Origin: an uncultured Gammaproteobacteria bacterium
GTDB lineage: Bacteria > Patescibacteriota > Patescibacteriia > Magasanikbacterales > GWA2-37-8
Assembly (NCBI GenBank): GCA_964510885.1
Contig: CAZEDL010000001.1
Coordinates: 312,982 to 376,981, forward strand
Direction of reading: 5' to 3'
DNA length: 64,000 nucleotides
Positions 964 through 55,325 of the stretch are shown here, one piece after another; position 1 is the first letter of the stretch, and every line of letters begins with the position of its first letter. The position numbers and the translations under genes are program-made. A model generated the notes under the pieces. The model ran no database searches and had not been told where the DNA came from. It saw only the letters and a program-made list of their open reading frames with translations.

Positions 964-1046
964 TGTCATTCCCGCAAAAGCGGGAATTAACAATCACTTT
1001 GGACTTCGTTTAACTATCCTGGATTCCCGCTTTCGCGGGAATGACA
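964..1046. repeat. Family-A palindromic MITE-like element (copy A1), intergenic. Termini are TGTCATTCCCGC...GCGGGAATGACA, with two internal hairpins.
   Basis: Perfect terminal inverted repeats tgtcattcccgc/gcgggaatgaca seen directly. Internal hairpins cccgcaaaagcggg and cccgctttcgcggg. The same termini recur at six other loci in the window. Confidence 0.7.
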
Positions 1047-2953: not shown

Positions 2954-3036
2954 AGAAGTTAAGGTTAAACAACTTATAAAGTCCTCCTGCCACGGCAGTT
3001 ACAGCGTAATGCCAAGGACTATGGACGTAAGATTAA

Positions 3037-7150: not shown

Positions 7151-10100
7151 CTACCCTCCTTCCGGATTAGTGCTTGTATCATATTCTTGAGGAGGCTCAG
7201 ATGCAGGTGTAAAAACTTCTTCTGAAGAAGTCGAGAGTTCATCAACTGGTGGCGTGACAGAAGGTGTAGAAATAGTACTGGTCGTATCTGTTGGCAACAC
7301 TTCACCTGAAGGGGATTCAACTATCTCCGAAGGAATGACGGTGGCCCGACGAGCATTTTTAACAGCCAAAGCTATCCAGCTAAAGGTTAGCTCAAATGGA
7401 GCAGGCTTACTGAGGTGTAGAGTAAAACCACGGGTAGTCTTTTTAATTATGATATACCTAATATCTTCAGTAAAAATTATCTCTTCGAGAGCCGCAGCCT
7501 CATCAGCGCTGAGAGTGGAAGTAGTTTCGAGCGACAAAGTCGCATTTACTACCGGTTGCTCGAGATACTCATGCTGGAACTCTACAGCAACATTCTTTTG
7601 ACCGGGGGGTACAACCACAAATCCTCCGCTATCGGCGTTAAAATAGGGCCGGCCTATAAAAAGAATTTCGCTGCCGACACTAATAGCGCCGCTAATTGAA
7701 CTGAGCATATCGACTTGTAATCCAGCACGCAATATACCCGGCTGATCAATAGACAGGCTGCTACTTGCCAAGTTAGCCAGGGTAAGATTTGATTGATTTT
7801 CAAGCGTCGTCATACGATTAAACAGGTAGTCGGTGGTTGAGGCAACCGCGCTAAGGGCCATGGTAGATGACGCTAATTGGATGCCTAAATCAGCAGTGGT
7901 TGAGGCTAACGCATCTACGGTCGAAGACACATAAGAGAGGCCTGGGGTAACAATCTCGTTGGCAACCAACCGAGAAGCAGCAATTGTCCCAGACACGGTC
8001 AAGGTACTCGCAATTCTCACTTGATCAGCAAAAAAGGCGCTGCCCTCAAAGGTAGTAGTAGCTAAAAAATCTATATCTCCAATGACACTCACCATGCCGT
8101 TTAATACCGTCGGTCCGTTAACCGTGAGACCACCAATTACTAGTGAGCTTGAAGGACTGATTGTGAACGAAGAGGAGCTCGCGACAGTGGAAGTGGTGAG
8201 AATTTCGGTACCACCTAACTCTGATTCGGTATCAAAAAAAGATAAAGCGCTTGAAGTGACAGACGTACTACTCGGAGATCCCGGCAGGGCTAGTCCTCGA
8301 ATAATCAGAATAGTGATACGAGCAGAAGAAGTAGCGAGTGGCTCGAGTGCCATACCAATAATACTTGCTGTTTTTCCACTCTCCAGGTCATAACGCATAG
8401 CATAGCCTGCTCTAGAGGCAGTAACTACATAGTCACCGGTACTAATTGGGCCATTTTCATCAGTAACTTTGGTATTAACGAGGCCAGACAACGCGAGCGC
8501 ACCGCGATTTTCACCACTGACACCAATTAAGAAACGGCCCGTATCAGAGATAACACCAGCTACATTAACTGCATAGGCACTGGTAGATTTTTTAAATTTA
8601 TTAGGATTCTCCGGATCAGAAATGAGCACGTCACCGGGCTCGCTCGTGTCACCCGGCGACAGATCTACATATTCGGCCAAATCACCAATCGTGCTGCCCG
8701 CGGCATTGGAGGTAATAGTTCCGGTGGAGCGAACATTTCCACCGGTGTCTACTGAAAGAACTTTGGAACCGGCGTTGCGCAAAGAAAATAAAATAGAGCT
8801 ACTTGCCGTGCTCAACGCACTATTGGTATCAAAAATAAATGCCCCGGCACCAGACCCGGACGCAAAGGAAGTAATAGTGGTGGAAGAATTCGACGCGGTA
8901 ATTTTAAGGCCACCAGCGCCAGATCCACCAGTTATAGCTAGCGTACCTGAGGCATTAATGGTGCCTACTACGGTGAGAGCCGAACCGAGAGTAGTAGTGC
9001 CAATTACCGACAGGCCACCTTCGGAACTAATACCTCCAACCCCAGCAAATAGACCACCTCGTAAAAAAAGACTGTTATCAAAAAAAGCATTTTGTAGTAC
9101 TTGTAAACCTCCGATTTCGGCAGTATGGGAAATCAAACCACCTGTTTCAATTCCGCCCACATCATAATATTGAAACTCACATCCGTGTGCTGAATTCTCA
9201 GAGAGAGCCCGGCAACTATCGACTGAACCCCCAACCCCAATAAAGAATCGACGGCCGGCCACGTACAGAGCGTTTACCGTCGTTCCCGAAACCCCTGATC
9301 CGGAATCTACACCCCCGACAAAAGTTAGCGCACTCGTCGAAACATCATAGACTTGAATTTCGCAATTTGCTGGAGTTGAAATCGAACAACTGGCGCCATT
9401 GCTAGCATTCTTCCCCACATACAAATAGCGCCCAGCAGACATGACTGCTTTAGTCGCGTCGGTTAAATCAAGACCATTTTTATAAGTGGGATTTGTCGGA
9501 TTAATCACGTCAAATAGTTGTAGTTCGCAGCCAGTACGGGTGGAAGATGAACAAGTACCAGTATTGGCATTATTAACCAGAAACACGTTCATTCCATTGA
9601 CCGTAATACCATTAGCCGTATTATCACCATTATCAACTCCTCCAATATATATTAGTGCCGTGGTGGAGGCGGTGATATCATAAATTTGTAGCTCACAACC
9701 AGTATTATCAGTAGAACTGCAGGTTCCAGAATTAGATGCTTTACCAATATAGGCCCGACGCCCCGATAGAGCAACTGCATCAAAATTGCTTCCACCGGCA
9801 TCATTGGCGCCGCCCATAAACCGAGGCGTAGAACTGGGGCCGGACAAATCATATAATTGAATTTCACATCCTGCTGGGTTAGCGAAAGTACAAGTGGCAG
9901 CACTTACCGCTTTGGCAATTACTACTCTGCCGCCTTCCATAGCCAGTCCTTTAATTTGAGTAGTGGCATCAATACCGCCGCTATAAACCGGGCTCAGAGG
10001 ATTAAACATATTATACATTTGCAGCTCGCAACCAGTAGCCGTAGTAGCTGAACAAAAACCACTTGCCGCATTAGTTCCGAATACTAAATAATCGCCAAAA

Positions 10101-17293: not shown

Positions 17294-17397
17294 TTCATTC
17301 CCGCCCCCGCTTACGCTGGGGGTAGACTCCGGCGGGAATCCAGTAATATTACTAGGCACTTATGCGACTGGATTCCCGTTTTCACGGGGATGACAAA
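17294..17397. repeat. Family-A MITE-like element (copy A2), a hybrid carrying a family-B-like core (CCCCGCTTACGCTGGGGGTAG)
   Basis: Termini tcattcccgcc...ggggatgaca, internal ggcgggaatccag / ctggattcccg inverted repeats. The core resembles B-family ccccgcttgggcggggtagggg. Confidence 0.6.
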
Positions 17398-27970: not shown

Positions 27971-28372
27971 ATGGAACGTATTACCACTATTGACCAATCA
28001 CTCTCCACCACGGTGGAGCAACCGGAAGCGATGGAGCTAAAAAAAGACGGGAAATTTTCTGATTTGTTTAATGTAATAGATGGTGTTATTAAAAATATTG
28101 ATATATCTCTAGCCCAAGCCAGCTTTGTGAGAAAAGCTCATCAAAAATTTTTTCCTCGATGGTTTTCGGCCTCAGACGCTATACGAATGAACAGTATTTT
28201 AGAGCAAGAAGAAACTCTCTATTCTGATTTAGTTGTCGATTCTGAATCAGGAATAATCAATTTTACTATCCAGTGTAAAATTCAAAAAAAGACACTGACC
28301 CGTTCTTTTCGTGGAATACTTAAATCGTTTAAGCGTGATAACCAAGAGATATATGGGATCGCTTGGGAGTAG
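27971..28372 (+). CDS. Hypothetical protein (133 aa) within the pur operon
   Basis: ORF only. Not PurS-like by eye. Confidence 0.3.
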   Translation: MERITTIDQSLSTTVEQPEAMELKKDGKFSDLFNVIDGVIKNIDISLAQASFVRKAHQKFFPRWFSASDAIRMNSILEQEETLYSDLVVDSESGIINFTIQCKIQKKTLTRSFRGILKSFKRDNQEIYGIAWE

Positions 28373-30845
28373 TACCCTCATTGATTTTTCTCTTCTGCCC
28401 GAAGGTGATATTGCTGACTGGCTCCAAAAAAACCACATTGGGTTAACTGTATCTGAAATTTTACATATTCAAAATACTATTCTGAAACGACCACCCACTT
28501 TGACGGAGTGTATTTTATGGTCAATCCAGGGGTCGGAGCATAGCTCCTACAAAAGTAGCCGACCTCATCTGAAACAATTTGCTACCAGTGGCCCGAGTGT
28601 CATGCTTGGGCCCGGTGAAGATGCGGGGATTGTAGAAGTCGCTCGAGATGCCGAGGGGCACCGGTATGGCATTGTGATGAGCCATGAGTCGCATAATAGC
28701 CCGTCACAAATTGTCCCCTACGAAGGCGCGGCAACTGGGGTGGGTGGCAATGTGCGCGATGTGGCATGCATGGGGGCCAAGGTGATTGCGAGCGCTGACC
28801 CGCTGCGCTTTGGTGATATTGCAAAAAATAAAACGAAATGGTTGACCGATGGCGTAGTCGCCGGCATTGCCGGGTATGGAAATCCTATCGGGGTACCGAT
28901 TATTGCAGGCGATATTTATTTTGATAAAAGTTACGATCCAAATTGTTTGGTGAATGTGGTTACGCTCGGCGTGGTGCGCGACGATGAGATTATTCACTCT
29001 CGCGCTCCTAGCAATGCCGACGGGTATAATCTCATTCTCGTTGGCAAGCCCACCGATAACAGCGGATTTGGTGGGGCGAGCTTTTCTTCGGTCGTGGTTG
29101 ATGAAACGAAAAAAGAAACCAACAGTGGCGCGGTGCAGCAGCCGAACGCCTTTCTCAAACGACATTTGCTGAAGGCGAGTTATGAATTGTTTAAGATTTT
29201 GAAAGCCAAAAATTTGATTGACCAGGTTGGATTCAAAGACTTGGGTGCAGGCGGGATTGCCTGCGTGTCGGTGGAGCTCGCTGACGCGGGTGACTATGGC
29301 GCTGAGGTGAACCTAGACTTAGTGCCGACGAGCATGGATAATTTAGCACCAGCGGTGATTCTGTGTTCGGAAACGCAAGAGCGATTTATGTGGGTGGCGT
29401 CGCCCGAGGTGACACCACTGATTTTAGAACATTATAATAAGACGTTTGATTTGCCGAAGATTGCCGGGGGCGCACAGGCCAAAGTAGTTGGTACGATTCG
29501 AGATGATGGGCAGTACATCGTTACCTTTAAGGGAGAAAAAGTTGTCGACGCACCGGCAAAAGAGGTGACACGGGGGTTGGTGTATGATCGACCCCATGTC
29601 AGATCTCAACGAGAATTGAGTGAGCCGGATATACCCGAACCGATCCCCTACTGTCATCCTGAGCAGGGCGAAGGACCCCTTAACGCAAACAATGCCTTGC
29701 AGTTAACTTTAAGGGATTCTTCGGCTGGGTCTCAGAATGACAAGTGGACATATAACGACATCCTCCTCAAAATTCTTTCTCACGAAAACGTTGCTTCCCG
29801 CGAGCCGATCTATGAACACTATGACAAAAATGTGCAAGGCATTACGGTGATCGAACCCGGTGAAGCTGATTCGGGCGTAATGCAACCCTTCAAAGATGAG
29901 ACATACCCTGCTGAAATTCGCTCCACGGGCGTTGCGCTATCAGTCGATCAAAACCCACGTTACTGCTTAGTAGATGCTTATTGGGGTGGAGTGAATGCAG
30001 TTGTTGAAGCGATGCGTAATGTGGCCGCGGTGGGAGCCTATCCGGTAGCATTGACGGATTGTCTGAATTTTGGCAATCCGGAAAAGCCGGAGGACATGGG
30101 AGTGTTCATCGAAGGAGTGCGGGGCGTGGCCGAAGCACAAACAGGGATTCATCTGCGAGATTTTCCCGACTCCCCTATCCCGATTATTTCGGGCAATGTA
30201 TCGCTTTATAAGCCGGTGGCACCGAGCCCGATTATTGCGTGTCTTGGTGCTATGCCTGATGCGAGCAAGGCGATTACGATGCACTTTAAAAAAGCTGACT
30301 CGGTCTTATTCGTGATTGGAGAGAGAAAAGATGAGTGTGGTGGAAGTGTGTATTATAGTCTATTCAACGAAGGGGTGGTGTTGGCTCCCTCCCATGCCGG
30401 AGGGGATGTTAGGTGGGGTGGGAGCAACACACTCCTCGGCGCCAATGTCCCTAAACCAAACCTAGCTGAAGTTGAAAGAGAGCTGCGTGCACTGACCGAG
30501 GCTATTCAAACTGGATTAATCCTAGCCGCCCATGATATTTCCGATGGCGGTATCGCGACGACACTCGCTGAGATGAGCTTTAGGAATGAAATTGGGTGCG
30601 ACGTGGCTATTCCGGGGGAACTTAGGACAGATAGAAAATTATTTGGCGAAAGTGGAGGCTGGGCGATTGAAGTTGAAAAACATCAGATTGATATGGTAAA
30701 AAATATTTTTGAAAAAAATAAACTAGAGCTACTAGAGATCGGGACTACTACCGCTGAAAAAAAATTACAGATGAACGGAGTCGTGACGGTTGATTTATCG
30801 GAAGCCAAAAAAATGTGGACAAATGGACTGAGAGAAAAATTATAG
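28354..30845 (+). CDS. purL: Phosphoribosylformylglycinamidine synthase subunit PurL (FGAM synthase II), carrying an in-frame MITE insertion at 29652-29742
   Basis: ILWSIQGSEHSSYKSSRPHLKQ...GPGEDAGIVEV..., the GNPIGVP and DxLNFGNPE regions, both AIR-synthase-like halves. The 31-codon insert YCHPEQGEGPLNANNALQLTLRDSSAGSQNDK is palindromic DNA. Confidence 0.85.
29652..29742. repeat. Family-A MITE-like element (copy A3) inserted in-frame inside purL
   Basis: tgtcatcctgagcagggcgaaggacccc...ctcagaatgaca. The internal ccttaacgc...aactttaagggattcttcg core is shared with copy A4. The ORF is uninterrupted across it. Confidence 0.75.
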
Positions 30846-37029: not shown

Positions 37030-37121
37030 TGTCATCCTGAACACAATGAAGGATCCCTTAACGCTATAATTAGTACAGAATTTTAACTTTAAGGGATTCT
37101 TCGCTACCGCTCAGAATGACA
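37030..37121. repeat. Family-A MITE-like element (copy A4), intergenic between purK and purE
   Basis: tgtcatcctgaacacaatgaaggatccc...ctcagaatgaca. The core is near-identical to copy A3. Confidence 0.75.
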
Positions 37122-40550: not shown

Positions 40551-42020
40551 ATGAATATTTTACTTGTTGGTTCAGGAGCTCGTGAACATGCCATTGCTCG
40601 AGCTATAAAGAAATCAAAGACCGAGACGAATCTTTTTTGTTTTGGTTCAAGTCGGAACCCAGGAATTATAGAACTTGTTTGTCATTCCAACGACGAAGGA
40701 GAAATCTCTGTCCGACACGATAATAACACATTGAACCAGAGATCCCTCGTCGGCGCGAGCCTCGCTCGGGATGACAGTAATGCCTACCGCGTCGGAAAAT
40801 TGGATGACGTCACTTCGATACTACAATTTGCTAAAAAAAATAAAATCGATTGGGCGATTATTGGACCTGAGCTGCCGCTGTCAGTTGGCCTGGTGGATGA
40901 ATTGAAAGCAATTAGCATTCCCTGTATTGGACCGACTAAGCAATTAGCCCAAATTGAAACGAGCAAGGCCTTTGCGCGGGATTTACTTTCTTATCATGGC
41001 GTGCCCGGACTGCCCCAGTACAAACGATTTGATTTTTTTGAAGCACTGGAAGTGATACAGGAATATATTCATTCGCTTGATGATAATTATGTAGTGAAGG
41101 CTGACGGGCTCATGGGTGGTAAGGGGGTTAAAGTCTACGGCGAGCAGCTACAAAGTTTTGAGGATACACTGCAATTTATCTTAGAAATAAAAGCAGCCAA
41201 TAGCCCATTTGTAATCGAAGAAAAATTCGTGGGGCAAGAATTTTCACTGATTAGCTTTTGTGATGGGGTACACCTGGCCCATATGCCGGCAGTGCAAGAT
41301 CATAAACGGGCCTATGTTGGCGATACCGGACCTAATACGGGTGGTATGGGCAGTTATTCGGACAGCAATCACTCACTCCCTTTTTTAACTGAAAAAGATA
41401 TTGCCCAGGCTCAAAAAATAAATGAATTAACAGCAGCGGCACTACTCAAGCAATTTGGCGTACCCTACAAAGGCATCCTGTATGGTGGTTTTATGACTAC
41501 GGCAGAAGGGGTGAAACTGATTGAATATAACGCCCGCTTTGGCGATCCGGAAAGCATTAATGTCTTGGCGTTACTGGAAACTGATTTGGTGGAAATTTGT
41601 CAGGCGATTACCAGCGGCGCCTTAGACACTATAGAGATTAAGTGGAAAAATGTAGCCACTGTTTGTAAATATGTTGTACCCGAAGGATATCCTGATAATC
41701 CGGTAAAAAATCAAGTTGTCGATGTTTCGGAAGTTAAGGATGCAGATTCTTTATATTTCGCGGCAATTGATGAACGAGAAGGAAAATTATATGAAACTGG
41801 TTCGCGAGCCATTGCGGTATTGGGTGTAGGCACCACTATTACTGAAGCGGAACAAAAAGCCGAGGAAGAAATTAAACAAATTAAAGGTTCACTATTTCAT
41901 CGGGAAGATATTGGGACAGAGGAGTTGATTGAGAAGAGAGTTCAGATAATGAGTCAAATACGCAATGAACGCAATCCCCGCTTGGGCGGGGTAGGGGTGG
42001 GTGAGTCCGCTGAGCTTTAA
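40551..42020 (+). CDS. purD: Phosphoribosylamine-glycine ligase (GAR synthetase). It has an in-frame MITE insertion (40680-40777), and its last ~16 codons come from the left inverted repeat of the DUF559 element.
   Basis: MNILLVGSGAREHAIA, ATP-grasp core, C-terminal domain. Insert CHSNDEGEISVRHDNNTLNQRSLVGASLARDDSN is palindromic DNA. The C-terminus NPRLGGVGVGESAEL is encoded by a B-family half-site. Confidence 0.85.
   Translation: MNILLVGSGAREHAIARAIKKSKTETNLFCFGSSRNPGIIELVCHSNDEGEISVRHDNNTLNQRSLVGASLARDDSNAYRVGKLDDVTSILQFAKKNKIDWAIIGPELPLSVGLVDELKAISIPCIGPTKQLAQIETSKAFARDLLSYHGVPGLPQYKRFDFFEALEVIQEYIHSLDDNYVVKADGLMGGKGVKVYGEQLQSFEDTLQFILEIKAANSPFVIEEKFVGQEFSLISFCDGVHLAHMPAVQDHKRAYVGDTGPNTGGMGSYSDSNHSLPFLTEKDIAQAQKINELTAAALLKQFGVPYKGILYGGFMTTAEGVKLIEYNARFGDPESINVLALLETDLVEICQAITSGALDTIEIKWKNVATVCKYVVPEGYPDNPVKNQVVDVSEVKDADSLYFAAIDEREGKLYETGSRAIAVLGVGTTITEAEQKAEEEIKQIKGSLFHREDIGTEELIEKRVQIMSQIRNERNPRLGGVGVGESAEL
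40680..40777. repeat. Family-A MITE-like element (copy A5) inserted in-frame in purD
   Basis: tgtcattccaacgacgaaggagaaatctctg...cagagatccctcgtcggcgcgagcctcgctcgggatgaca. The right end is ~85% identical to the TIR of the GIY-YIG element. It is read in the same frame (TGT CAT ... GAC A) as copy A3. Confidence 0.7.
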
Positions 42021-42438
42021 GAGACATACTTATGTTAAACAATCAAACCCATAAAAATTATAAGCCCTCCCTTAAGCCACTCACTCGTCACTTACGTACG
42101 AATTCTACATTAAGCGAGGTTATTTTATGGAATCATCTTAAAAATCGAGGCTTATTAGGTTATAAATTTCGACGTCAAACTCCTATTTTAAATTATATTG
42201 TTGATTTTTATTGTAAAGAATTACAGTTAGCGATTGAGATTGACGGGATAACTCATGATGAAAAAATTGAGTATGATGTGGAGCGACAGAAAAAAATGGA
42301 AAAAGTTGGTATCTTTGTGTTACGGTTTCAAGATAGTGAAATTAAAAAGGATATTGATATTATCCTGCAACGAATTGTTGAGTGGGTAAACGGCCACGCA
42401 TCGCCCTCACCCACCCCTACCCCGCCCAAGCGGGGATT
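41973..42438 (+). mobile_element. Inverted-repeat-flanked element (family B, copy B1) carrying a DUF559/Vsr-like endonuclease gene, inserted at the purD/purN junction
   Basis: Left IR aatccccgcttgggcggggtaggggtgggtgag (41973-42005). Right IR ctcacccacccctaccccgcccaagcggggatt (42406-42438), its exact reverse complement. The DUF559 ORF lies between them. Confidence 0.7.
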
Positions 42439-43036
42439 GCTATCCAGTGACGCCGGTATACACCTTGCCATCCTCGGTTCCACACGCGGTACCAATCTGC
42501 AAGCGATTATTGATGCTATTGCAGAAAAAAAATTAAACGCTTATATCGATATCGTTATCAGCAATAAAGCCGATGCCTATATTTTGGAGCGCACCAAGCA
42601 ACATGGATTACGGGTCGTTTTTATCGATAGCAGAAATAAAAGCCGAGAACAGTTTGACCAAGAAGTTTTAAATGAATTAAAAAAATATCATATTGATCTC
42701 GTCCTGCTTATCGGTTACATGCGTATCCTCTCCCCCACTTTCGTACAGACGTATAGAAATAAAATTTTAAATGTTCACCCGTCCCTACTCCCCGCCTTTG
42801 CTGGCGGGATGGACATGAATGTACATGAAGAAGTGTTAAAATCAGGGGTGACAGAAACGGGTTGTACGATTCATCTGGTTGACGATGGAGTGGATACCGG
42901 CAAGATTTTGCTGCAAAAAAAATGTACCGTTGAACCAGGGGATACGGCGGAGAGTTTGAAAGATAAAGTGCAACAATTGGAGGGAGAAGCGTGGATTGAA
43001 ATATTAAAAAATTGCAATTTAACAGATACTTTCTAA
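42032..43036 (+). CDS. purN: Fusion ORF: an N-terminal DUF559 endonuclease-domain protein (Vsr/PD-(D/E)xK-like, ~125 aa) fused in-frame, through the right IR, to phosphoribosylglycinamide formyltransferase PurN. The PurN part is ~42437-43036, with a possible TTG start at 42437.
   Basis: DUF559 signature LRTNSTLSEVILWNHLKNRGLLGYKFRRQTPILNYIVDFYC...IEIDGITHDE...VLRF. PurN: LAILGSTRGTNLQAII, NVHPSLLPAFAG, DTGKIL. There is no in-frame ATG at the PurN N-terminus. Confidence 0.7.
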   Translation: MLNNQTHKNYKPSLKPLTRHLRTNSTLSEVILWNHLKNRGLLGYKFRRQTPILNYIVDFYCKELQLAIEIDGITHDEKIEYDVERQKKMEKVGIFVLRFQDSEIKKDIDIILQRIVEWVNGHASPSPTPTPPKRGLLSSDAGIHLAILGSTRGTNLQAIIDAIAEKKLNAYIDIVISNKADAYILERTKQHGLRVVFIDSRNKSREQFDQEVLNELKKYHIDLVLLIGYMRILSPTFVQTYRNKILNVHPSLLPAFAGGMDMNVHEEVLKSGVTETGCTIHLVDDGVDTGKILLQKKCTVEPGDTAESLKDKVQQLEGEAWIEILKNCNLTDTF

Positions 43037-43040
43037 TTTT

Positions 43041-44732
43041 ATGAATCTTTCCCTCACCCCTATCACTCGCGCCCTCATCTCCGTCTCTGATAAAACCGGC
43101 ATTATTGCTTTTGCCGAAAAATTAGCTGAAAAAAATGTGGAAATTATTTCCACTGGCGGGACGGCCAAAGCCCTCGTGGAAGCAGGGATTCCGGTCATTG
43201 AAATTTCTGATTTCACTGGTTTCCCAGAAATGATGAATGGCCGAGTAAAAACCCTTCACCCCAAAGTTCATGGCGGCATTCTGGGCCTCAGGGACGCACA
43301 CGCGAGTACTGCCGCCGAGCATGGAATCAAGTGGATCGATTTGGTGGTGTGTAATCTATATCCATTCGCTGCCACTATTCAGAAACCGGGCGTGAGTGAA
43401 GACGAAGCGATTGAGAATATTGATATCGGCGGGCCGAGCATGATAAGGAGTGCGGCCAAAAATGTGGGGTGGGTCGGGGTAGTGGTTGATCCGTCAGATT
43501 ATGAGTTTGTGAAGGGTGAATTAGAAACACAAGGCGGAATCACGATCGAGACGCGAAAAAGATTATCAGCCAAAGCATTTGGGCATACGGCGGCATATGA
43601 TGCGCTGATCAGTAATTATTTTAATGCAGAGCCATTCCCCAGCGAGCTGACACTCGGCTACAAAAAATTCTATGATTTGCGCTATGGAGAAAACCCGCAT
43701 CAGCTCGCTTGCGTGTATCAAGAATCAATACCGACTGATCAGAATGTACTCGGGGCAATCATTCATCAAGGTAAGCAGCTCTCCTACAACAATATTAACG
43801 ATGCGGATGGCGCGTGGTTCACTCTCAGGGAATTCCCTGAGCCGACCTGCGTGGTAGTAAAACATGCTAATCCATGTGGGGTGGCAAGCGATAGCGATAT
43901 TACTGTAGCATTTAAACGGGCCTATGCAGCGGATGCGCTCTCGGCCTTTGGTGGTGTCATTGCTTTGAATCGACCGTGTACCGCAGCTATTGCTGAGGAG
44001 ATAGCCAAAGTCTTTGCCGAAATTGTGTTGGCTCCTTCATATGAAACTAAGGCTTTGGAAGTATTGGCACCAAAAAAGAATTTACGAGTGTTAGAAATGA
44101 AGAGAGAGGCGGCTGTACATAACACACAAAATCCCCGCTTGGGCGGGGTAGGGGTGGGTGAGACCTTTGCGTCGCCGGACTCAACGACCTCACCCACCCC
44201 TGGCCTGTGGGCCACCCCCGCCCAAGCGGGGATTGTCCGTCGACCAGTTTATAAATCTGAACTAAAAAACAATTCACCGTTAGAGTATCGTTTTATTAAT
44301 GGTGGACTGCTCGTACAGGAGCAAGATACTAAAGAGATAACTCTGCCTGACCTCAAAATTGTCACTGCTAAACAACCAAGCGAACAAGAATTACAAACTA
44401 TGCTGTTTGCCTGGAAAGTCTTGAAACACATGAAATCAAATGCGATTTTGGTTGCCAAAGACAATACCACGGTGGGAGTTGGTGTGGGGCAGGTGTCGCG
44501 CGTGGATGCGGTGGATATCGCGCTCAAGAAAGCTGGAGATCGCTTGAACGGCTCAATTTTGGCCTCTGATGCCTTCTTCCCTTTTCGCGATAGTATTGAT
44601 AAACTGGCGGGAACTGGAATTACCGCCATCATTCAACCGGGCGGGTCAGTGAAAGACAAGGAAGTGATCGAGGCCTGCAACGAGCATGGGATTGCGATGG
44701 TGTTTACGGGAGTGAGGTGTTTTAAGCATTAA
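43041..44732 (+). CDS. purH: Bifunctional AICAR transformylase/IMP cyclohydrolase, with an in-frame 35-codon palindromic insert (44130-44234)
   Basis: MGS-like N-terminus RALISVSDKTGI, AICARFT core. Insert NPRLGGVGVGETFASPDSTTSPTPGLWATPAQAGI is encoded by B-family half-sites. Confidence 0.9.
   Translation: MNLSLTPITRALISVSDKTGIIAFAEKLAEKNVEIISTGGTAKALVEAGIPVIEISDFTGFPEMMNGRVKTLHPKVHGGILGLRDAHASTAAEHGIKWIDLVVCNLYPFAATIQKPGVSEDEAIENIDIGGPSMIRSAAKNVGWVGVVVDPSDYEFVKGELETQGGITIETRKRLSAKAFGHTAAYDALISNYFNAEPFPSELTLGYKKFYDLRYGENPHQLACVYQESIPTDQNVLGAIIHQGKQLSYNNINDADGAWFTLREFPEPTCVVVKHANPCGVASDSDITVAFKRAYAADALSAFGGVIALNRPCTAAIAEEIAKVFAEIVLAPSYETKALEVLAPKKNLRVLEMKREAAVHNTQNPRLGGVGVGETFASPDSTTSPTPGLWATPAQAGIVRRPVYKSELKNNSPLEYRFINGGLLVQEQDTKEITLPDLKIVTAKQPSEQELQTMLFAWKVLKHMKSNAILVAKDNTTVGVGVGQVSRVDAVDIALKKAGDRLNGSILASDAFFPFRDSIDKLAGTGITAIIQPGGSVKDKEVIEACNEHGIAMVFTGVRCFKH
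44130..44234. repeat. Family-B palindromic MITE-like element (copy B2), with no cargo gene, in-frame inside purH
   Basis: aatccccgcttgggcggggtaggggtgggtgag ... ctcacccacccctgg..cccgcccaagcggggatt. Both half-sites are the same as those flanking the DUF559 gene. Confidence 0.75.
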
Positions 44733-44738
44733 TTTACT

Positions 44739-44880
44739 TGTCATTGCGAGGAGTGATCCCGATTCGCATCGGGAGAACGACGAAGCAATCCCTTTGATTT
44801 CAGAACTACTTAAAATTAAAAATACCCCTGCAAACAAGGGGATTGCCACGTCTTCGCTTGGGCTCCTCCTCGCAATGACA
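44739..44880. repeat. Family-A MITE-like element (copy A6), nested palindromes, intergenic between purH and the amidohydrolase
   Basis: tgtcattgcgaggag...ctcctcgcaatgaca outer IR. Inner hairpins atcccgattcgcatcggga and aatcccc..ggggatt. The terminal cAATGACA supplies an in-frame ATG to the downstream ORF. Confidence 0.7.
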
Positions 44881-44892
44881 CAGTATCATTTT

Positions 44893-46266
44893 ATGAATAA
44901 CTTCTCTCGTTCCCCTCGCTATAACGTACTCAAACCAGACCATGAGCCCAAGCGAATTCTTATTCATGGATTACGTTTTATATTGACTAGCAGCGAATCT
45001 GAGAGATTAAGTGTGGTACCCGACCAATCATTACTTATTGAGGACGGAGAAATCACTGAGCAATTTCCTAAAAAAGAATTGGACAAAAGGGTTGATCTCA
45101 AAACCATCGATCTCATTTATGATGCCGAACAAAAAGGTGGAATTGTTGCAACGCCGGGCTTTATAAATCTACATTCTCATCCGCCGATGTATCTGCTGCG
45201 CTCCACCCTTACACTGGCTGAGGATAATTTGGAAGAAGCGCTGCGCGGCATGGCGAAGCTCGAAGCCAAAATGAATACTGAGGATTTTTACCTCGGAGCA
45301 CTCGGTGACTTTACGGAGCAGCAAAAATCAGGAATCACGACTACGCTCAGCCACTATGGCGTGTTCGATCCGATTGAGCGAGCGGCGAGTGAATCGGGAC
45401 AGCAGGTTATTAATTGCTTATCGGCAGCAAGCAATTCACATCCAGAGAATACGCCAGCCTTGGTAGAAAAGTACTTGAAGAAAAAAAATACGGTGACTAC
45501 GCCTGGTATTGCCCTGCACTATGTGTGGAAAGCAACTCCACCGACGCTGAAAAAGATTGCCGCTTTGATTAAAAAATACAACGCGTACTTTACGGTGCAT
45601 GTGGCCGAGAGCGAACAGACCGTGGAGCGGTGCCTCGAGGCCTATGGCGAGCGGCCGGTGGCAGTCTTGGCCAAATATGATTTACTGGGGCCGCGAACGA
45701 TCATTAGCCATGCGGTCCATTTGACTCCCGAAGAAATTAGCATCATTAAAAAAACAGGGACTATCGTGGTGCACCTGCCTACTTCGAATTTGTTGCATCG
45801 TTCAGGACAATTTAAGTATACAGAATTTTCGCGGCAGCAAGCCAAACAGTTGATTACGCTCGGGACTGATAGCGTGATCAGTAAGAATCGGCTGGATTTA
45901 CTGAGCGAAGCGTTGGCCATGAAGACGTTGCATCAGGCTAAAGAAATTATTTCGTACGAAGAATTATTTAATGTGCTCACGGCACAACCGGCTAAGCTCC
46001 TCGGATTAAAAAAGCTCGGTCAGATTAAACCGGGCTTTACGGCGAATTTGTGTTTTTGGAAGCTGAAAGATCGAGGGCTATTGCCGTATGATGAGGACCA
46101 TCCGGAAACTCTGGTGAGTAATTTAATTACTCATGGGAGTCGCGGAGTGCGGGATTTGATGATTAAGGGGCGATTTGTTATTAGTAATCGGTATCATAAT
46201 TTGGTGGATGAGAGTGGGCTATTGGAGAAACTACAGACAGCACATATGGAACTGAGAAAACGTTAA
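44893..46266 (+). CDS. Amidohydrolase-superfamily protein (metal-dependent deaminase-like, e.g. guanine/adenosine-type). The six-frame ORF starts at 44794, inside the MITE.
   Basis: GFINLHSHPPMY metal-binding HxH, and later H and D ligands (VHVAES, HAVHL, GTDS). Confidence 0.6.
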   Translation: MNNFSRSPRYNVLKPDHEPKRILIHGLRFILTSSESERLSVVPDQSLLIEDGEITEQFPKKELDKRVDLKTIDLIYDAEQKGGIVATPGFINLHSHPPMYLLRSTLTLAEDNLEEALRGMAKLEAKMNTEDFYLGALGDFTEQQKSGITTTLSHYGVFDPIERAASESGQQVINCLSAASNSHPENTPALVEKYLKKKNTVTTPGIALHYVWKATPPTLKKIAALIKKYNAYFTVHVAESEQTVERCLEAYGERPVAVLAKYDLLGPRTIISHAVHLTPEEISIIKKTGTIVVHLPTSNLLHRSGQFKYTEFSRQQAKQLITLGTDSVISKNRLDLLSEALAMKTLHQAKEIISYEELFNVLTAQPAKLLGLKKLGQIKPGFTANLCFWKLKDRGLLPYDEDHPETLVSNLITHGSRGVRDLMIKGRFVISNRYHNLVDESGLLEKLQTAHMELRKR

Positions 46267-46273
46267 TTTCTAC

Positions 46274-46688
46274 TGTCATCCCGAGGAACGAGGGATCCCC
46301 TGGTTTGAGTAAGTAGTAAATAAGCAGAAATATATATGTTACAACCAACTTACTACATCTACTTCCTCATGAACGCCTATCATAGTGTCCTGTATGTGGG
46401 TGTTACCAATGATTTAGCCAGACGTATTTCAGAACATAAACAGCATTTAATTCCTGGTTTTACCAAAAAATATAATGTTGATAATTTAGTTTATTGCGAA
46501 TCATTTAGTGATATTAATCAAGCAATTCAACGAGAGAAAGAATTGAAGGGGTGGCGACGTTCGAAAAAATTAGAATTAATAAAAAGCATCAATAGTGACT
46601 TAAGAGATTTGAGTAAGGAGTGGGAGTAATTTTTTATTATTTTACTGGGCACTGCATACAGGGGGATCCCTCCTTCGTCGGGATGACA
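46274..46688 (+). mobile_element. Inverted-repeat-flanked element (family A, copy A7) carrying a GIY-YIG nuclease gene
   Basis: Left TIR tgtcatcccgaggaacgagggatcccc (46274-). Right TIR ggggatccctccttcgtcgggatgaca (-46688). The two are ~28 bp, reverse complements of each other, ~85% identical. A single 97-codon ORF lies between them. Confidence 0.7.
46336..46629 (+). CDS. GIY-YIG family nuclease (URI-domain, YhbQ/COG2827-like)
   Basis: YYIYFLMNAYHSVLYVGVTNDLARRISEHK...REKELKGWRRSKKLELI matches GIY..YIG, the catalytic R and E, and the KxWxRxxK tail. Confidence 0.8.
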   Translation: MLQPTYYIYFLMNAYHSVLYVGVTNDLARRISEHKQHLIPGFTKKYNVDNLVYCESFSDINQAIQREKELKGWRRSKKLELIKSINSDLRDLSKEWE

Positions 46689-46704
46689 AGAACGATTGAA
46701 CTTG

Positions 46705-48180
46705 CTACTCCCCCACTCGATAATTCGGTGCCGAACGCATTTCGCGCAAATCATGCGGGTGACTCTCTTTGAGACCGGCATTACTGATTTTAACGAGTAC
46801 TGCTTTCTGATGTAGTTCTTTTATCGTAGCGGCACCGACATACCCCATACCACTGCGGAGACCGCCGGCGAGTTGGTACAGAATCCGATCAACAGGTCCT
46901 TTATAGGCCACACGGCCGCTCACGCCCTCGGGAACAAATTTAGTTTTTTCTTTGACTTCGGCCTGGCCATAGCGATCTTTACTGCCACGCTCCATAGCTT
47001 CCATGCTGCCCATGCCGCGGTAGACTTTGAACATGCGGCCATCAATATATTCTACGCGGCCAGGTGATTCATCGGTACCGGCAAACATGTTGCCCATCAT
47101 CACCGTGTCGGCACCGGCAGCGAGCGCCTTCACAATATCACCAGACGTTTTTATTCCTCCGTCAGCGATAATAAGCGGATGTTTTTTTGTTTTTTTAAAT
47201 GCTGCAGCCACATCAAGAACGGCTGAAAGTTGCGGCACCCCGACTCCGGCTATAATACGCGTGGTACAGATAGAACCCGGGCCAATGCCTACTTTTACCG
47301 CATCGGCGCCAGCGGCGGCAAGGGCGAGAGCTGCAGTGCCGGTGGCGATATTACCTGCGATAATAGCCTGATCTTTGTAGGCTTTACGCAGGCGTTTCAC
47401 GGCGTTTATTACTCCACTCGAATGCCCATGGGCGGTATCTACGACCAGCACATCAACCCCGGCTCGAATGAGCGCTTCGGCCCGCTCAAAACCCGCATCG
47501 CCTACCCCGACTGCGGCACCGACCCGCAATTGCTTGGCAACGTTCTTGGCAGCGTCTGGATAGAGCTCGTTTTTTTCCATGTCTTTACGGGTCACGATGC
47601 TGACTAATTTTCCGGCCGTGTCGACAATACACAGGGTCTTGAGTTTATTTTTACGGATCATGGCATTCGCTTCCTCTAGGCGCATACCTGCTTGACCAAC
47701 TATTAATTCAGCGACGCTTTGCATCCGGAATTTGACCATAAGGTCGTTATCGTCTGGAGCAAAATAATCAACATCACTAATAAGACCGACGAGAACACCC
47801 TTACTATCTACCACGGGAATTTTCTTATAACCCTGCTCGGTGCGTAATTGCTGTACAAGGCTAATTTTATCTTCTGGTTTGACCGTGACGGGATTTTCAA
47901 TAAAGCCGTTTTCAAAACGCTTGACGCGCTGCACTTCGAGCACCTGTTCATCGATTGAAAGATTTTTATGAATAATGCCCATGCCACCAGCCAAGGCAAG
48001 TGCGATAGCCATTTTGTGCTCGGTAACGGTATCCATAGGTGCACTTAAAAAGGGCAATTGCAGCTTGATATCTGGCGTGAGCCAGGTCGCGAGCTCGGTG
48101 TCTTTGGGCAATAGATCAGAGGCTTGGGGCACGAGCAAGACATCGTCAAAGGTGAGCGTTTCTTGGAGAGGGGTAAACAT
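46705..48180 (-). CDS. guaB: IMP dehydrogenase (with CBS pair)
   Basis: [11 protein letters not shown], catalytic [31 protein letters not shown] subdomain. Confidence 0.9.
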
Positions 48181-48700: not shown

Positions 48701-50536
48701 ATGGAAGCCTCTAAAAATGAAATTGCAATTCTCGACTTTGGATCACAGTATACCCACCTCATTGCCCGGCGGATCAGAGAATTAGGAGTGGTTTCACACA
48801 TTTATCCGACCGATATAGCGGCCAAAAACCTTAAAAACGTAGTCGGCATTATTCTCTCGGGGGGGCCAAAAAGTGTCGTACGGGAAGAGACTCTCCCCTA
48901 TGACAAAGATATTTTTGATCTCGGAATTCCGATCTTGGGGCTCTGCTATGGCCACCAACTCATGGCCATGCATTTTGGTGGAGTGGTCGGAGCGGGTAGT
49001 GCTCGGGAATACGGGCAAGCCGAGCTAACGGTACAGGCTTCACCCATCTTCAAGAATATCCCTAAGCGCTCAACGGTGTGGATGAGTCATGGCGATCATG
49101 TATCGGTCGTCCCGCCGGGTTGGCAGGCTATTGCGGATAGTGGCGGCGAGGCAGTGGCGGCCATGGAATACTCCGAAAAAAAATGGTACGGATTCCAATT
49201 TCATCCGGAGGTGTATCACTCCGCGCACGGGAAAAAGATGTTAAGTAATTTTGTGTTTGATATCTGCGGAGCCAGCAAGAATTGGGATTCCAAAACGCAA
49301 CTGAAAACGGTAAGTGAAGAAATTAAACAGGCCGCGGGAGATAAAAATGTCTTTTTACTGGTGAGTGGAGGCGTGGATTCTACGGTCTGTTTCGCACTCC
49401 TTGAAAAAATACTGGGCAAGAATCGGGTGTACGGTTTGCATGTAGATAGTGGCCTCATGCGTCTTGATGAGAGTAAGAAAATTACTCGGGCTCTAAAACA
49501 AACTGGCTTTTCTAACTTACACGTTTATCACGCAGAAAAAGAATTTTTAAATCGACTAAAAGGAATTATTGAACCAGAACAAAAAAGAAAAATCATTGGC
49601 GACACCTTCCTCGACATCGTGGATCGGGTGATGAAAGAAAAAAACATGGATTCTGGTGGATGGCTCGTTGGCCAAGGCACCATTTACCCCGATACGATTG
49701 AATCCGGAGGAACCAAACATGCGGTGGTGATCAAAACTCACCACAACCGCGTGCCACGGATCCAGCAGATGATTGCGGAGGGAAAAATTATTGAACCGCT
49801 GAAAGAGTTATACAAAGATGAGGTGCGGGCAATTGGGCGCCAGCTTAAGCTACCAAAAGAATTAATTGAGCGGCATCCGTTCCCGGGGCCAGGACTGGGG
49901 ATTCGGATTTTGTGTTCAAAGGGGTCGAAAGAGAGAGCTACACCTATTGAAGGTGATAGATTCCCGCTGCTACGCGGGAATGACACTGAGGATAGTAATA
50001 CACTCTATTCCCTACCAATTAAATCCGTCGGTGTGCAGGGTGACGAACGATCGTATTCGCATCCAGCCATTATTATTGGGAACAGTCTGGCCGAAGAGAA
50101 AAAAATCTGGAAGACCATTCACACTCTAGCACCAGCTATTACCAATCAACATCATGAAGTGAATCGCGTGATGCTGCCTGTGCTGGGAGACAGAAAAAAA
50201 ATCTTGACATCGCGTGTGCATGCGGCAACCCTGACTAAAAAGCGAATTGCACTATTACAAAAAATCGATGCTATCGTGCATCGTTATGTGCTGGCAGCTA
50301 AATCATGTAGCCACATTTGGCAATTGCCGGTGGTGTTGGTGCCGTTTGGTTATAAGCACAGAGAATCAATCGTGCTCCGACCATTTCAATCCGAAGAAGT
50401 GATGACCGCTTCGTTTGCCCTGATCCCATGGCCAGTACTCAAAAAAATTCTGGCAGCGATTGCGAGGCTGAAAGCAGTTGATTTTGTGTTTTATGATGTG
50501 ACGAATAAGCCTCCTGGTACTATTGAATGGGAATAA
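48701..50536 (+). CDS. guaA: GMP synthase (glutamine-hydrolysing)
   Basis: GATase ILDFGSQYTHLIARRIRELGV, catalytic LGLCYGHQ, HPE. PP-loop VSGGVDSTV. C-terminal dimerisation domain. Confidence 0.9.
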   Translation: MEASKNEIAILDFGSQYTHLIARRIRELGVVSHIYPTDIAAKNLKNVVGIILSGGPKSVVREETLPYDKDIFDLGIPILGLCYGHQLMAMHFGGVVGAGSAREYGQAELTVQASPIFKNIPKRSTVWMSHGDHVSVVPPGWQAIADSGGEAVAAMEYSEKKWYGFQFHPEVYHSAHGKKMLSNFVFDICGASKNWDSKTQLKTVSEEIKQAAGDKNVFLLVSGGVDSTVCFALLEKILGKNRVYGLHVDSGLMRLDESKKITRALKQTGFSNLHVYHAEKEFLNRLKGIIEPEQKRKIIGDTFLDIVDRVMKEKNMDSGGWLVGQGTIYPDTIESGGTKHAVVIKTHHNRVPRIQQMIAEGKIIEPLKELYKDEVRAIGRQLKLPKELIERHPFPGPGLGIRILCSKGSKERATPIEGDRFPLLRGNDTEDSNTLYSLPIKSVGVQGDERSYSHPAIIIGNSLAEEKKIWKTIHTLAPAITNQHHEVNRVMLPVLGDRKKILTSRVHAATLTKKRIALLQKIDAIVHRYVLAAKSCSHIWQLPVVLVPFGYKHRESIVLRPFQSEEVMTASFALIPWPVLKKILAAIARLKAVDFVFYDVTNKPPGTIEWE

Positions 50537-53273: not shown

Positions 53274-55325
53274 TTATTGTTTCCGGTAGCCTAAGAATAA
53301 GGAATTTCCGCGTTGACCGACGTGGACAAATACCAACCGCATAATGGTGCGGGTGACACTAATAGCAGTGAACAAGTTAATCAACGTACCGACGGCTAAA
53401 ATCACGGCAAAACCCTGAATAAAGCCGCTACCAAACCAGACTAAGAATACGCAGCTAATAAGGGCGGTAATATGACTATCTCGAATCGAGGGCCAAGAAC
53501 GGGCAAATGATTCTTCGGTGCTGGAGTTTAGTAGTTTTCCCGCTTGGAGCTCTTCTTTAAGACGTTCAAATACTAGGATATTAGCATCGACAGCCATACC
53601 AATCGAGAGGATAAACCCGGCAATACCGGCCAGGGTCATTGTGACACCGATCAGCTTGAAGACAGCTAAACTGAGAATAGCATAGAAAGCCAAAGAGAAG
53701 ACCGAGAGCAGGCCCGGCAAACGGTAGTAGATAACCATGAATAACATGACCAGCAGAAGCCCGTAGATACCAGCGCGGAAACTTTTTTGGAGCGAATCAA
53801 CACCAAGAGTCGCATCAACGGTTTGCTGACTGATCAATTCTACCGGCACTGGCAAGGCGCCTGAATTCAAGCGCTGTGCCAAGAGTTTGGCATCTTTCAG
53901 GCTAAAGCCACCGGAAATCACGGCGCTGCCGGTGTTGATCGCTTCGTTCACTATCGGGGCGCTGATTGGCTGGCCATCGAGGAAGACGGCGATCGGCTTG
54001 CCGACATTGCGGCCGGTGATCTCACTAAAGAGTTTGGCGCCTTCGTCGTTAAAATTCAGACTGACCTGGATTTGGCCGCTGCGCTGATCTTCGGTTACTT
54101 CGGCACGTTTCAATTGTTTGCCCGATAGACCGGTAGATTTCCACTGGTCAACCGGTGGGACAATATCAGTTTTGGTTTTGGTTTTAATGAAGAGATTGGC
54201 AATCTGAATCTGATCGGCCACCGCTTCATCAGTTTTATAAATCAAATGATAACCAAATTCAGTTTCAACTGGCTCGGAAATGGTGCCAACTTTCTGCGGC
54301 CAAACTACGGCTTCAAAGGCTTTCACCATTGCACCTTGTTTAAAGGTACCAAGGCTACCGCCGGTATTAGCCGCGCCTGGTTCGGTAGAATATTTTTTGA
54401 CTAGTTCTACAAAATTCTTTGGAGTGGCTTCTTTGCGGATTTCTTGAATCTTGGCGAGGGCTTGTTCTTTGGTATAGCTACTGCCTTCACAGCGAGTGGC
54501 GCCTTTGTAGCAGAGGAGCAAATGCGAAGCCGTCACGGTTTTTTCTCCGGCTTGCACGGCGAGGCGGCGCACGATATTCAAACCACTCACGGTTTTAATA
54601 GTAGTCGCGCTAACTTCACCATCTTTAAGGGTTTTGGCTGAGGCATAGAGCTCGGGGTAGACATCGGCGCTAATAAAACCGAGGTCGCCGGCTTTATCTT
54701 TGGTGGTGGTATCTTCGGAATACTTAGCTACAGCTTCAGAGTATGACATCCCTTTTTTAATCGCTTGGAGCGCGGTAGTGGCTTTTTGCTCAGCGGCTTT
54801 ATTGAAATCCGTCAGTTGTTTTTGTTCAGCGGCAGTCAGCTCGCGCGGGGCAGCGGTATTTTCTTCTTTAAATTCAAGGATCGGGGTTTCGCCAATACTC
54901 TTGATGGCTTCATTGACATCGGTGACGCCTGGCAACTCCACGATCACGCGATAGGCGCCGGCAACTTTCGTAGTTTGAACCAGTGGTTCGGCCACACCAA
55001 GGCCGCCACGGACGCGGCGTTCGATCACATCACGCACGCCTTCTACGGAATTAGCGCGGTCAGCTTCGGGAATATTGGTGGTGTTGGCTTCGTAGACGAG
55101 GTGAGCACCGCCTTGCAAATCAAGGCCGAGGTTGTAACCTTTTTCGGGAAAGCGGGGTAGGCCGAGATTGGTGGTTTGGTTAACTTTATCAATCGCCCGA
55201 TTGGCATAGTGCGGGGCAGCAATAATGCCGCAGAGCGCAAACAACAGGATGATTCCAGCCATGCGCCAGCGCAGCTGGGAGCGGGTAATTACTTTACGCG
55301 TGGGCAGTGGTTTTCGAATAGCCAT
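53274..55325 (-). CDS. secD: Protein translocase subunit SecD with a PpiC/parvulin-type peptidyl-prolyl isomerase domain embedded in the periplasmic head
   Basis: SecD TM1, P1 domain and C-terminal six-TM core (GLLSVFSLAFYAIL..., IGMAVDANIL). Inserted rotamase signature SHLLLCYKG...GGSLGTFKQGAMVKAFEAVVW...SEPVETEFGYHLIY. Confidence 0.8.
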   Translation of the reverse strand: MAIRKPLPTRKVITRSQLRWRMAGIILLFALCGIIAAPHYANRAIDKVNQTTNLGLPRFPEKGYNLGLDLQGGAHLVYEANTTNIPEADRANSVEGVRDVIERRVRGGLGVAEPLVQTTKVAGAYRVIVELPGVTDVNEAIKSIGETPILEFKEENTAAPRELTAAEQKQLTDFNKAAEQKATTALQAIKKGMSYSEAVAKYSEDTTTKDKAGDLGFISADVYPELYASAKTLKDGEVSATTIKTVSGLNIVRRLAVQAGEKTVTASHLLLCYKGATRCEGSSYTKEQALAKIQEIRKEATPKNFVELVKKYSTEPGAANTGGSLGTFKQGAMVKAFEAVVWPQKVGTISEPVETEFGYHLIYKTDEAVADQIQIANLFIKTKTKTDIVPPVDQWKSTGLSGKQLKRAEVTEDQRSGQIQVSLNFNDEGAKLFSEITGRNVGKPIAVFLDGQPISAPIVNEAINTGSAVISGGFSLKDAKLLAQRLNSGALPVPVELISQQTVDATLGVDSLQKSFRAGIYGLLLVMLFMVIYYRLPGLLSVFSLAFYAILSLAVFKLIGVTMTLAGIAGFILSIGMAVDANILVFERLKEELQAGKLLNSSTEESFARSWPSIRDSHITALISCVFLVWFGSGFIQGFAVILAVGTLINLFTAISVTRTIMRLVFVHVGQRGNSLFLGYRKQ

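Follow-up and report, generated by a model that had tools for sequence, protein, structure and literature searches.

The 64-kb stretch of DNA analyzed here (the window; all coordinates are window positions) carries, between an amidohydrolase gene that ends at 46266 and the guaB gene, which is encoded on the opposite strand and has its stop codon at 46705-46707, a cassette consisting of a small GIY-YIG nuclease gene enclosed by two inverted copies of a short hairpin repeat. In the initial annotation of this locus the termini of the cassette were described as reverse complements at about 85% identity that enclose only a gene for a GIY-YIG nuclease of 97 amino acids (aa), and both statements were confirmed. 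The features of the cassette, in which SRM stands for the Ssn-related motif and Ssn for the nuclease family discussed below, are as follows.

46274..46307, + strand: left arm, SRM-like repeat; TGTCAT tag facing outward, palindrome ATCCC-GA-G-GAA-C-GA-GGGAT, then C

46336..46629, + strand: putative ssn gene; product of 97 aa, GIY-YIG nuclease with a single domain, Ssn family (PF01541 match, SsnA homology)

46655..46688, - strand: right arm, inverted copy of the left-arm repeat (…GGGATGACA); tag facing outward

46270..46705, no strand assigned: segment without counterpart in two related genomes at the junction of amidohydrolase gene and guaB (blastn break, intergenic gaps)

The two inverted arms are 34 nt long, 85% complementary to each other and spaced 347 nt apart. 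A search of the window with the first 24 nt of the left arm, allowing up to three mismatches, returned two sites only, namely the two arms, and the same search in 100 dinucleotide-preserving shuffles returned 0 matches. Each arm is composed of TGTCAT, a 19-nt near-palindrome that starts at the tag's own AT, and a C that follows directly. With the palindrome of the right arm reading ATCCC-GA-C-GAA-G-GA-GGGAT, both arms can be drawn as a hairpin with a stem of 5 bp followed by a tandem G.A/A.G step, one more base pair and a GAA loop. Within the palindrome the arms differ at two positions only, which pair with each other (G..C on the left, C..G on the right). This is a compensatory change, and for this reason the hairpin was considered real. 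The arms are not a described RNA motif in Rfam, where no family matched them at the gathering threshold or at E-values up to 10. The possibility that the arms are terminators was dropped after a promoter and terminator scan of 46150-46800 gave nothing above shuffled sequences.

The sole sizeable open reading frame (ORF) between the arms encodes the 97-aa protein, which matched the Pfam GIY-YIG model PF01541 (E=5e-17, residues 6-78) and contained no second domain. Proteins of this kind were recently characterized as the Ssn family, single-domain GIY-YIG nucleases of about 94 aa (Chenal et al., 2025, Nat Commun 16:2388; PMC11893778). The SsnA protein of Neisseria meningitidis (94 aa, a single GIY-YIG domain, CDD cd10448, GIY-YIG_unchar_3) binds the repeat CGTCATTCCCGCGMAVGCGGGAATCYRG as single-stranded DNA (ssDNA) only and on one strand only, cleaves a few nucleotides upstream of it and is inactive on double-stranded DNA; binding depends most on the C directly following the palindrome and cutting on the three bases that precede it, and the substitutions Y6A, Y17A, and E64A abolish cutting (Chenal et al., 2025). 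A GTCAT-tagged hairpin repeat (NTS/SRM) typically borders the ssn genes, with at least one SRM in 71% of the homolog regions and motifs on both sides in 42%, and 81% of the genomes with more than 200 motifs carry the gene (Chenal et al., 2025).

The comparison with SsnA was made using the ortholog from N. gonorrhoeae, standing in for the characterized N. meningitidis protein and taken from the PLSDB entries NZ_CP119140.1 and NZ_CP119142.1, which are 2.17-Mb chromosomes filed as plasmids. Using tblastn, the window protein matched one locus in each chromosome (E=4e-18) over residues 2-92 (94% of the protein), which places it within the homology threshold used to delimit the family (tblastn E<1e-10 across more than 75% of the length; Chenal et al., 2025). 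The matched ORF of 94 aa (MQPAVYILASQRNGTLYIGVTSDL...) carries Tyr6, Tyr17, and Glu64, and canonical NTS repeats surround it. In the BLASTP comparison of the two proteins 42 of 91 positions were identical (46%; E=5e-28, 84 bits), and the catalytic residues Y9, Y20, and E67 of the window protein aligned with Y6, Y17, and E64 of the N. gonorrhoeae ortholog. In an alignment of 36 homologs Y20 and E67 were invariant and Y9 was conserved in at least 90%. The only solved structure matched was the UPF0213 protein 1zg2, and the match was weak (E=0.0014, 22 bits). Since this compares with 84 bits to Neisseria SsnA, the label "COG2827-like" given in the initial annotation is wrong, and on these alignment scores the protein is to be placed outside the COG2827/UPF0213 family.

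We interpret the cassette, with a probability of roughly 0.85, as an ssn gene lying between an inverted pair of hairpin repeats that presumably are cognate to it, the arm repeat being a variant of the SRM that is also known as the CGTC/TGTC-tagged class of repetitive extragenic palindromic (REP) sequences. The GTC tag and the C following the palindrome, both critical for SsnA (Chenal et al., 2025), are retained in the two arms. The cassette is thus a further example of the Ssn/SRM module and not a new kind of element, and the finding is not new because the module was published in 2025 (Chenal et al., 2025).

Two observations weigh against this interpretation. Neither arm fits the published SRM pattern HGTCWYN(0-2)YYVSBRHN(0-5)WNVSBRGN(0-2)RNCYNB, which matched the window at 1019-1046 and 17368-17395 only. 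The predicted folding of the arm was also poor in the nearest-neighbor model (-4.2 kcal/mol, z about 0 compared with shuffled sequence), and the canonical Neisseria repeat reached -8.9 kcal/mol (z=-3.0) in the same model. Regarding the first point, the SRM pattern is a search heuristic built by hand from 29 genomes, and variant repeats (NTSvar) were described along with it (Chenal et al., 2025). The pattern matched only 5 of 80 homolog loci in our survey, and for this reason its absence from the arms probably reflects a variant class of repeat in this branch of the family and not a failure of membership; for the same reason homologs flanked by repeats are probably more numerous than the published counts indicate. 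As to folding, tandem G.A pairs and GAA/GNA triloops are under-credited by the nearest-neighbor energy model, and we attribute the poor score of the arms to this property of the model.

More than 1000 homologs of the window protein were found, the nearest of which was 74% identical. The gene neighborhoods of 80 homolog loci were surveyed on contigs from one genome per species, covering Bacteroidota, Chloroflexota, Acidobacteriota, Firmicutes, Cyanobacteria, Proteobacteria, Verrucomicrobiota, Patescibacteria, and others. For each locus the 200 nt upstream of the gene were aligned to the reverse complement of the 200 nt downstream, and as a control to the downstream flank of another locus. An alignment score of at least 30 was obtained for 38 of 81 loci, compared with 9 in the swapped controls, and the matched arm started with TGTCAT nearly always. 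TGTCAT-hairpins were counted under a strict definition, in which the AT of the tag opens a stem of at least 5 bp without mismatches and the loop measures 3-18 nt; their density was 3.1 per kb up to 250 nt from the gene and 0.16 per kb beyond that distance. The upstream repeat mostly started 28-62 nt ahead of the start codon, and an outward-facing repeat was present upstream in 37 loci and downstream in 24. The initial annotation had proposed asking whether other GIY-YIG genes sit between such repeats, and the association was found to be consistent across many phyla; the gene with its arms is a conserved unit.

The features of the repeat itself were tallied for 169 GTCAT-hairpins situated within 300 nt of homolog genes. 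The base before GTCAT was T in 144 of these repeats (85%), the palindrome started at AT in 165, the next base was C in 159, and the loop was bordered by GA...GA in 113. Loci with the same palindrome core had a protein identity of 56.6%, compared with 53.9% otherwise (permutation p about 0.0005), a difference that is confounded by phylogeny. This weak co-variation of core and protein is compatible with cognate pairs of enzyme and repeat.

One homolog of the survey (P0014) is located between cas1 and cas2-cas4, that is, within a CRISPR adaptation module with repeat arrays on both sides. The gene occupies positions 3001-3312 of contig L093, and the arrangement was constant in all samples read (L093-L102).

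Other repeats of the same kind in the window were sought with the strict hairpin definition, which replaced a looser hairpin scan that had given 8 matches per shuffled window. Strict TGTCAT-hairpins numbered 11 in the 64 kb, compared with 1.5 in shuffled sequences, and comprised several core subfamilies. Besides the cassette, five TGTCAT...ATGACA doublets of 83-142 bp were found; these and two solo repeats are given below.

964..1046, no strand assigned: doublet with the NTS-like core ATTCCCGC...GCGGGAAT; intergenic, right arm (1019-1046) fitting the SRM pattern exactly

17368..17395, - strand: NTS-like solo repeat fitting the SRM pattern

29652..29742, no strand assigned: doublet of the ATCCTGA/ATTCTGA subfamily inside the purL ORF (28311-30845)

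37030..37121, no strand assigned: doublet of the ATCCTGA/ATTCTGA subfamily between purK and purE

40680..40776, no strand assigned: doublet inside purD, an in-frame insert of 33 aa; right arm sharing the core of the cassette arms

44739..44880, no strand assigned: doublet with a core of the ATTGCGAGG subfamily; intergenic, with purH on one side and the amidohydrolase gene on the other

49960..49985, - strand: solo NTS-like hairpin (TGTCATTCCCGCG...GCGGGAAT) inside the guaA ORF

The TGTCAT tag, a palindrome initiated by AT, and the following C are common to all doublets, and their cores are of at least four types (ATTCCCGC, ATCCTGA/ATTCTGA, ATCCCGA, and ATTGCGAGG). Folded as ssDNA, the doublet at 37030-37121 reached -14.1 kcal/mol (z=-3.8). 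Repeats of the Ssn type lie in frame within the essential purine genes purD (40680-40778), purL (29652-29742), and guaA (49960-49985).

In the initial annotation several of these elements had been grouped as a family of miniature inverted-repeat transposable elements (MITEs, family A) that share the terminal inverted repeat (TIR) of the cassette. This was borne out for the right end of the purD doublet, which has the cassette core TGTCATCCCGA...CGAGGGATC and matched the cassette arm at 27 of 30 positions with a loop insertion allowed. The ends of the remaining doublets are related to the cassette arms, and to this extent the grouping stands; the common TIR does not, since none of these doublets shares the core and they matched the arm at 20-23 of 30 positions only. 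Judged by their motifs, the other doublets are therefore better regarded as members of the same superfamily as the cassette arms with a different TIR. The further proposal that the MITEs are cargo-less derivatives of the cassette was not supported, as at least four core subfamilies are present and no internal sequence common to cassette and doublets was found beyond the arm motif.

The terminal ATGACA of the doublet at 44739-44880 provides an in-frame ATG (MTQYHFMNNF…, 44875-44900), and the start of the amidohydrolase that is conserved in the related genome L104 (MDNF…) is situated just downstream of it. Because ATGACA supplies an upstream in-frame ATG, insertion of the doublet may have altered the start of the amidohydrolase.

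The host of the cassette can be assigned from neighboring genes. The SecA protein of the window was 70-72% identical to proteins of Candidatus Magasanikbacteria and other Patescibacteria, and the named relatives of the amidohydrolase were likewise found in Patescibacteria/Magasanikbacteria. Two related Patescibacteria genomes, L104 and L105, whose amidohydrolases are 83 and 81% identical to that of the window, were used for a comparison of synteny. Both keep the gene order purD-purN-purH-amidohydrolase-guaB and lack the cassette, so that the insertion polymorphism proposed as a check in the initial annotation was indeed observed. The amidohydrolase gene is separated from guaB by 1 nt in L104 and by 48 nt in L105, with neither a doublet nor a nuclease gene at the site, and the blastn alignment breaks at window positions 46269|46706, corresponding to position 5377 of L104. 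Four more elements of the window are absent from L104, namely the purD insert, a cassette with a DUF559 gene (41960-42461), an element inside purH (44099-44283), and the doublet at 44739-44880. The 33-aa purD insert is missing from an L104 PurD that is 78% identical, and purH and the amidohydrolase gene of L104 abut where the window has the 44739-44880 doublet. L104 for its part carries at 2888-3022 an in-frame doublet (CGTCATTGCGAGGAG…CTCCTCGCAATGACG) in purH, which belongs to the same ATTGCGAGG core subfamily as the window doublet at 44739-44880 and lies at a position different from that of the window's purH insert. The doublets are lineage-specific insertions, some of which are tolerated in frame inside essential genes.

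The nearest homologs of the window protein, P0002 (74% identical) and P0004/P0005 (68-70%), are all encoded upstream of a UbiE-type methyltransferase gene, unlike the gene in the window, and this placement of the nearest lineage is stable in three diverged genomes. The arms of P0002 have the same ATCCCGA...GAGGGATCCCC core as the cassette. Between the window and the contig of the 74% identical homolog (L113), which has other neighboring genes, DNA similarity spans only the segment from TA(C/T)TGTCAT to GGGATGACA. Since similarity stops at the TGTCAT/ATGACA termini in a different context, gene and arms represent one unit that has been relocated at least once, and this upholds the view, taken in the initial annotation, that the nuclease gene belongs with its two arms as a genuine unit.

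Signs of a recent or ongoing transposition were sought in two ways. A direct repeat CTAC (46270-46273 and 46705-46708) bounds the inserted segment and is a candidate target-site duplication that could be due to chance; a candidate ATTT repeat flanks the 44739 doublet, and the purD insert measures 99 nt for a doublet of 97 nt. Across the cassette and the purD and 44739 elements no clear target-site duplication of constant length was found, and the inserted segments were longer than the TGTCAT...ATGACA unit by 2-23 nt. Identical Ssn proteins in differing contexts were searched for among three sets of proteins from many metagenomes, two of widely sampled homologs and one of the nearest lineage, and each set always occupied one context (Mur-ligase and M42-peptidase genes; cas1 and cas2; radical-SAM and methyltransferase genes). 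A gene that is stable, single-copy and occasionally relocated, together with dispersed doublets, more closely resembles the biology of REP-associated tyrosine transposases (RAYTs) and the REP doublets (REPINs) associated with them than that of insertion sequences.

With the Neisseria and Wolbachia enzymes as a guide, the Ssn protein of the cassette would bind the hairpin on ssDNA, on one strand only, would recognize the GTC tag together with the C that follows the palindrome, and would cut a few nucleotides 5' of the tag. Flanking and dispersed hairpins alike would then most likely be binding sites that are nicked just outside the tag, and, with the two arms pointing outward, cleavage on either strand is predicted to fall just beyond the unit. 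The only role demonstrated so far is the restriction of incoming repeat-bearing ssDNA in Neisseria transformation, where deletion of ssnA raised transformation by repeat-bearing DNA about 5-fold; a spread of the repeats by Ssn in the manner of REPINs and RAYTs was raised in the Discussion of the same study (Chenal et al., 2025). It is possible, although on balance doubtful, that the Ssn nuclease spreads both module and doublets and that these are actively mobile in this lineage of Patescibacteria, in which case the system would work like REPIN/RAYT on the basis of a GIY-YIG hydrolase, and the mobile unit would start at the cut site of the nuclease, about 3 nt 5' of TGTCAT.

Three other explanations of the cassette were weighed against its interpretation as an Ssn/SRM module. 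In a window as rich in repeats as this one, with its excess of strict hairpin matches over shuffles, two independent solo repeats might have come to lie beside an unrelated small gene by chance. This explanation is scarcely credible and was refuted by the consistent association in the locus survey: the gene family is flanked likewise across phyla, also on both sides in the published regions (Chenal et al., 2025), the upstream spacing from the start codon is narrow, and the subtype of the arm travels with the lineage of the gene. In its anatomy the cassette also resembles a doublet whose spacer holds a gene, and GIY-YIG enzymes include homing endonucleases; a free-standing homing-endonuclease gene could accordingly have invaded the spacer of a doublet already present, with the doublet as its multi-copy target and the arms as the split halves of that target. 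We regard this as very improbable, because the characterized enzyme cuts ssDNA only and does so 5' of the tag, outside the pair and not in the spacer, because the protein is a single domain without the DNA-binding extension typical of homing GIY-YIG enzymes, and because the syntenic intergenic sites of the relatives hold neither doublet nor gene.

More can be said for a transposon similar to an insertion sequence (IS), in which the GIY-YIG protein would act as an autonomous mobilizing enzyme, with the arms as TIRs and the doublets as non-autonomous partners. The outward orientation of the arms would place the predicted cuts at the outer borders, the cassette and four more repeat elements are missing from the syntenic sites of the relatives, a doublet of the same subfamily as one in the window lies elsewhere in purH of L104, the homology to the nearest homolog stops at the termini while the neighboring genes differ, and the possible 4-nt CTAC repeat surrounds the inserted segment. 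Nevertheless a hydrolytic nuclease of 97 aa without known strand transfer is not a known transposase, and the published enzyme leaves duplex DNA untouched. The gene is also present in one copy in the 64 kb, identical Ssn proteins keep one fixed context per set, and the nearest lineage is fixed upstream of the methyltransferase gene in three diverged genomes. Moreover, the excess length of the inserts is variable and the duplication inconsistent, and the doublets contain no cassette-internal sequence and are thus not internal-deletion derivatives. Taking these points together, we consider an autonomous transposon unlikely.

The parallel drawn in the initial annotation between the Ssn cassette and the cassette with a DUF559 gene held up, as flanking by inverted repeats proved to be general for this gene as well. 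The DUF559 gene (a Vsr-like nuclease; 41971-42440, ORF 42032-43036) has its own inverted hairpin CCCCGC-TTGG-GCGGGG, followed by TAGGGGTGGGTGAG. Among relatives at 80 metagenome loci (L114-L193) the flank alignment reached a score of at least 30 in 57 of 76, compared with 16 in the swapped controls, and the common motif of these loci was TCCCCTC-N4-6-GAGGGG..TAGGGGTG(T/G)GT. No description of the gene together with an inverted hairpin repeat was found in the surveyed literature that mentions DUF559. This combination looks like an undescribed second module of nuclease and repeat parallel to Ssn/SRM, and it is perhaps a more novel lead in this window than the Ssn cassette. The ORF 42032-43036 continues through the right-hand repeat (…SPSPTPTPPKRG…) into purN, giving a single frame of 334 aa, and purN in the relatives is a separate gene of 190-193 aa; judging from this reading frame, the product may be a fusion protein, or there may be an internal restart of purN. 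A doublet of the DUF559 type is present in frame inside purH (44099-44283, repeat 44130-44201), where the product has 563 aa, and is absent from this position in L104 and L105.

Several other features of the window were recorded. A near-complete cluster for de novo purine synthesis extends from 25683 to 50536 and comprises folD, purA, purL, a purM-like gene, purQ, purC, purK, purE, purB, purF, purD, purN, purH, guaB, and guaA. Patescibacteria are usually described as being without nucleotide synthesis. The ORF 53274-55325 encodes SecD/SecF domains with two inserted rotamase domains of the PPIC type. An ORF of 1873 aa (7151-12772) contains a direct repeat of 300 nt (10647-10946 and 11313-11612), whose copies are 64% identical and lie 666 nt apart and which presumably represents a repeat within the protein.

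The cassette extends the Ssn family and its repeat to Patescibacteria, and with the locus survey to many phyla, with a repeat variant that is missed by the published pattern. Empty syntenic sites and homology that ends at the termini bear on the mobility of the module, which was left open in the original description (Chenal et al., 2025), and a single operon provides in-frame repeat insertions in purD, purL, and guaA. As Ssn enzymes are under development as tools for ssDNA, a pair of enzyme and repeat with a different core is a candidate for a new specificity. If the nuclease does drive the spread of the repeats, Ssn would be the "missing enzyme" of the CGTC/TGTC-tagged superfamily, including the Rickettsia palindromic elements. 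The module was recognized anew from raw sequence alone, and its experimental description dates only from 2025.

Among known systems the cassette is most similar to Neisseria ssnA. In both cases a single-domain GIY-YIG protein of about 94-97 aa (46% identity) keeps the catalytic Tyr/Tyr/Glu, GTCAT-tagged hairpins followed by C border the gene on either side, and repeats of this class recur at dispersed sites, here across the window, often in pairs. The systems differ in the core of the repeat, which here is ATCCCGA..GAA..GAGGGAT with internal G.A pairs and not ATTCCCGCG...GCGGGAAT, and in the tag, which is TGTC here and CGTC in Neisseria; the arms here miss the SRM pattern. The nearest flanking repeats face outward here and inward in N. 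gonorrhoeae, several repeats here lie in frame inside essential genes whereas only 2% of the copies in N. meningitidis are intragenic (Chenal et al., 2025), and the host here belongs to the Patescibacteria. The CGTC-tagged REP superfamily, as defined by Di Nocera et al. (2013; PMC3733652) to include the Rickettsia palindromic elements, likewise consists of short palindromes tagged at one end that occur singly or as dimers and in some cases within coding genes. That class was reported to "apparently lack a dedicated transposase" (Di Nocera et al., 2013), whereas here the repeats flank an ssn gene, and 85% of the repeats near homologs carry TGTC as their tag.

The similarity to UPF0213/YhbQ (COG2827; PDB 1zg2), which is also a small stand-alone GIY-YIG protein, is marginal, and transposons of the IS and MITE type differ in that the sole product of the cassette is a 97-aa GIY-YIG nuclease and not a recognized transposase. 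With REPs, REPINs, and RAYTs the cassette has in common a single-copy, largely vertically inherited nuclease gene between inverted hairpins that are also dispersed as doublets, as well as the recognition of a single-stranded hairpin with a short tag beside the stem. RAYTs, however, are transesterases of the HUH/Tyr (Y1) type derived from IS200/IS605, while the enzyme here is a GIY-YIG hydrolase of unrelated fold; the tag is GTAG there and GTCAT/TGTCAT here, and mobilization here is a candidate only. The cassette is thus REPtron-like in its organization without being a member of the REPtrons.

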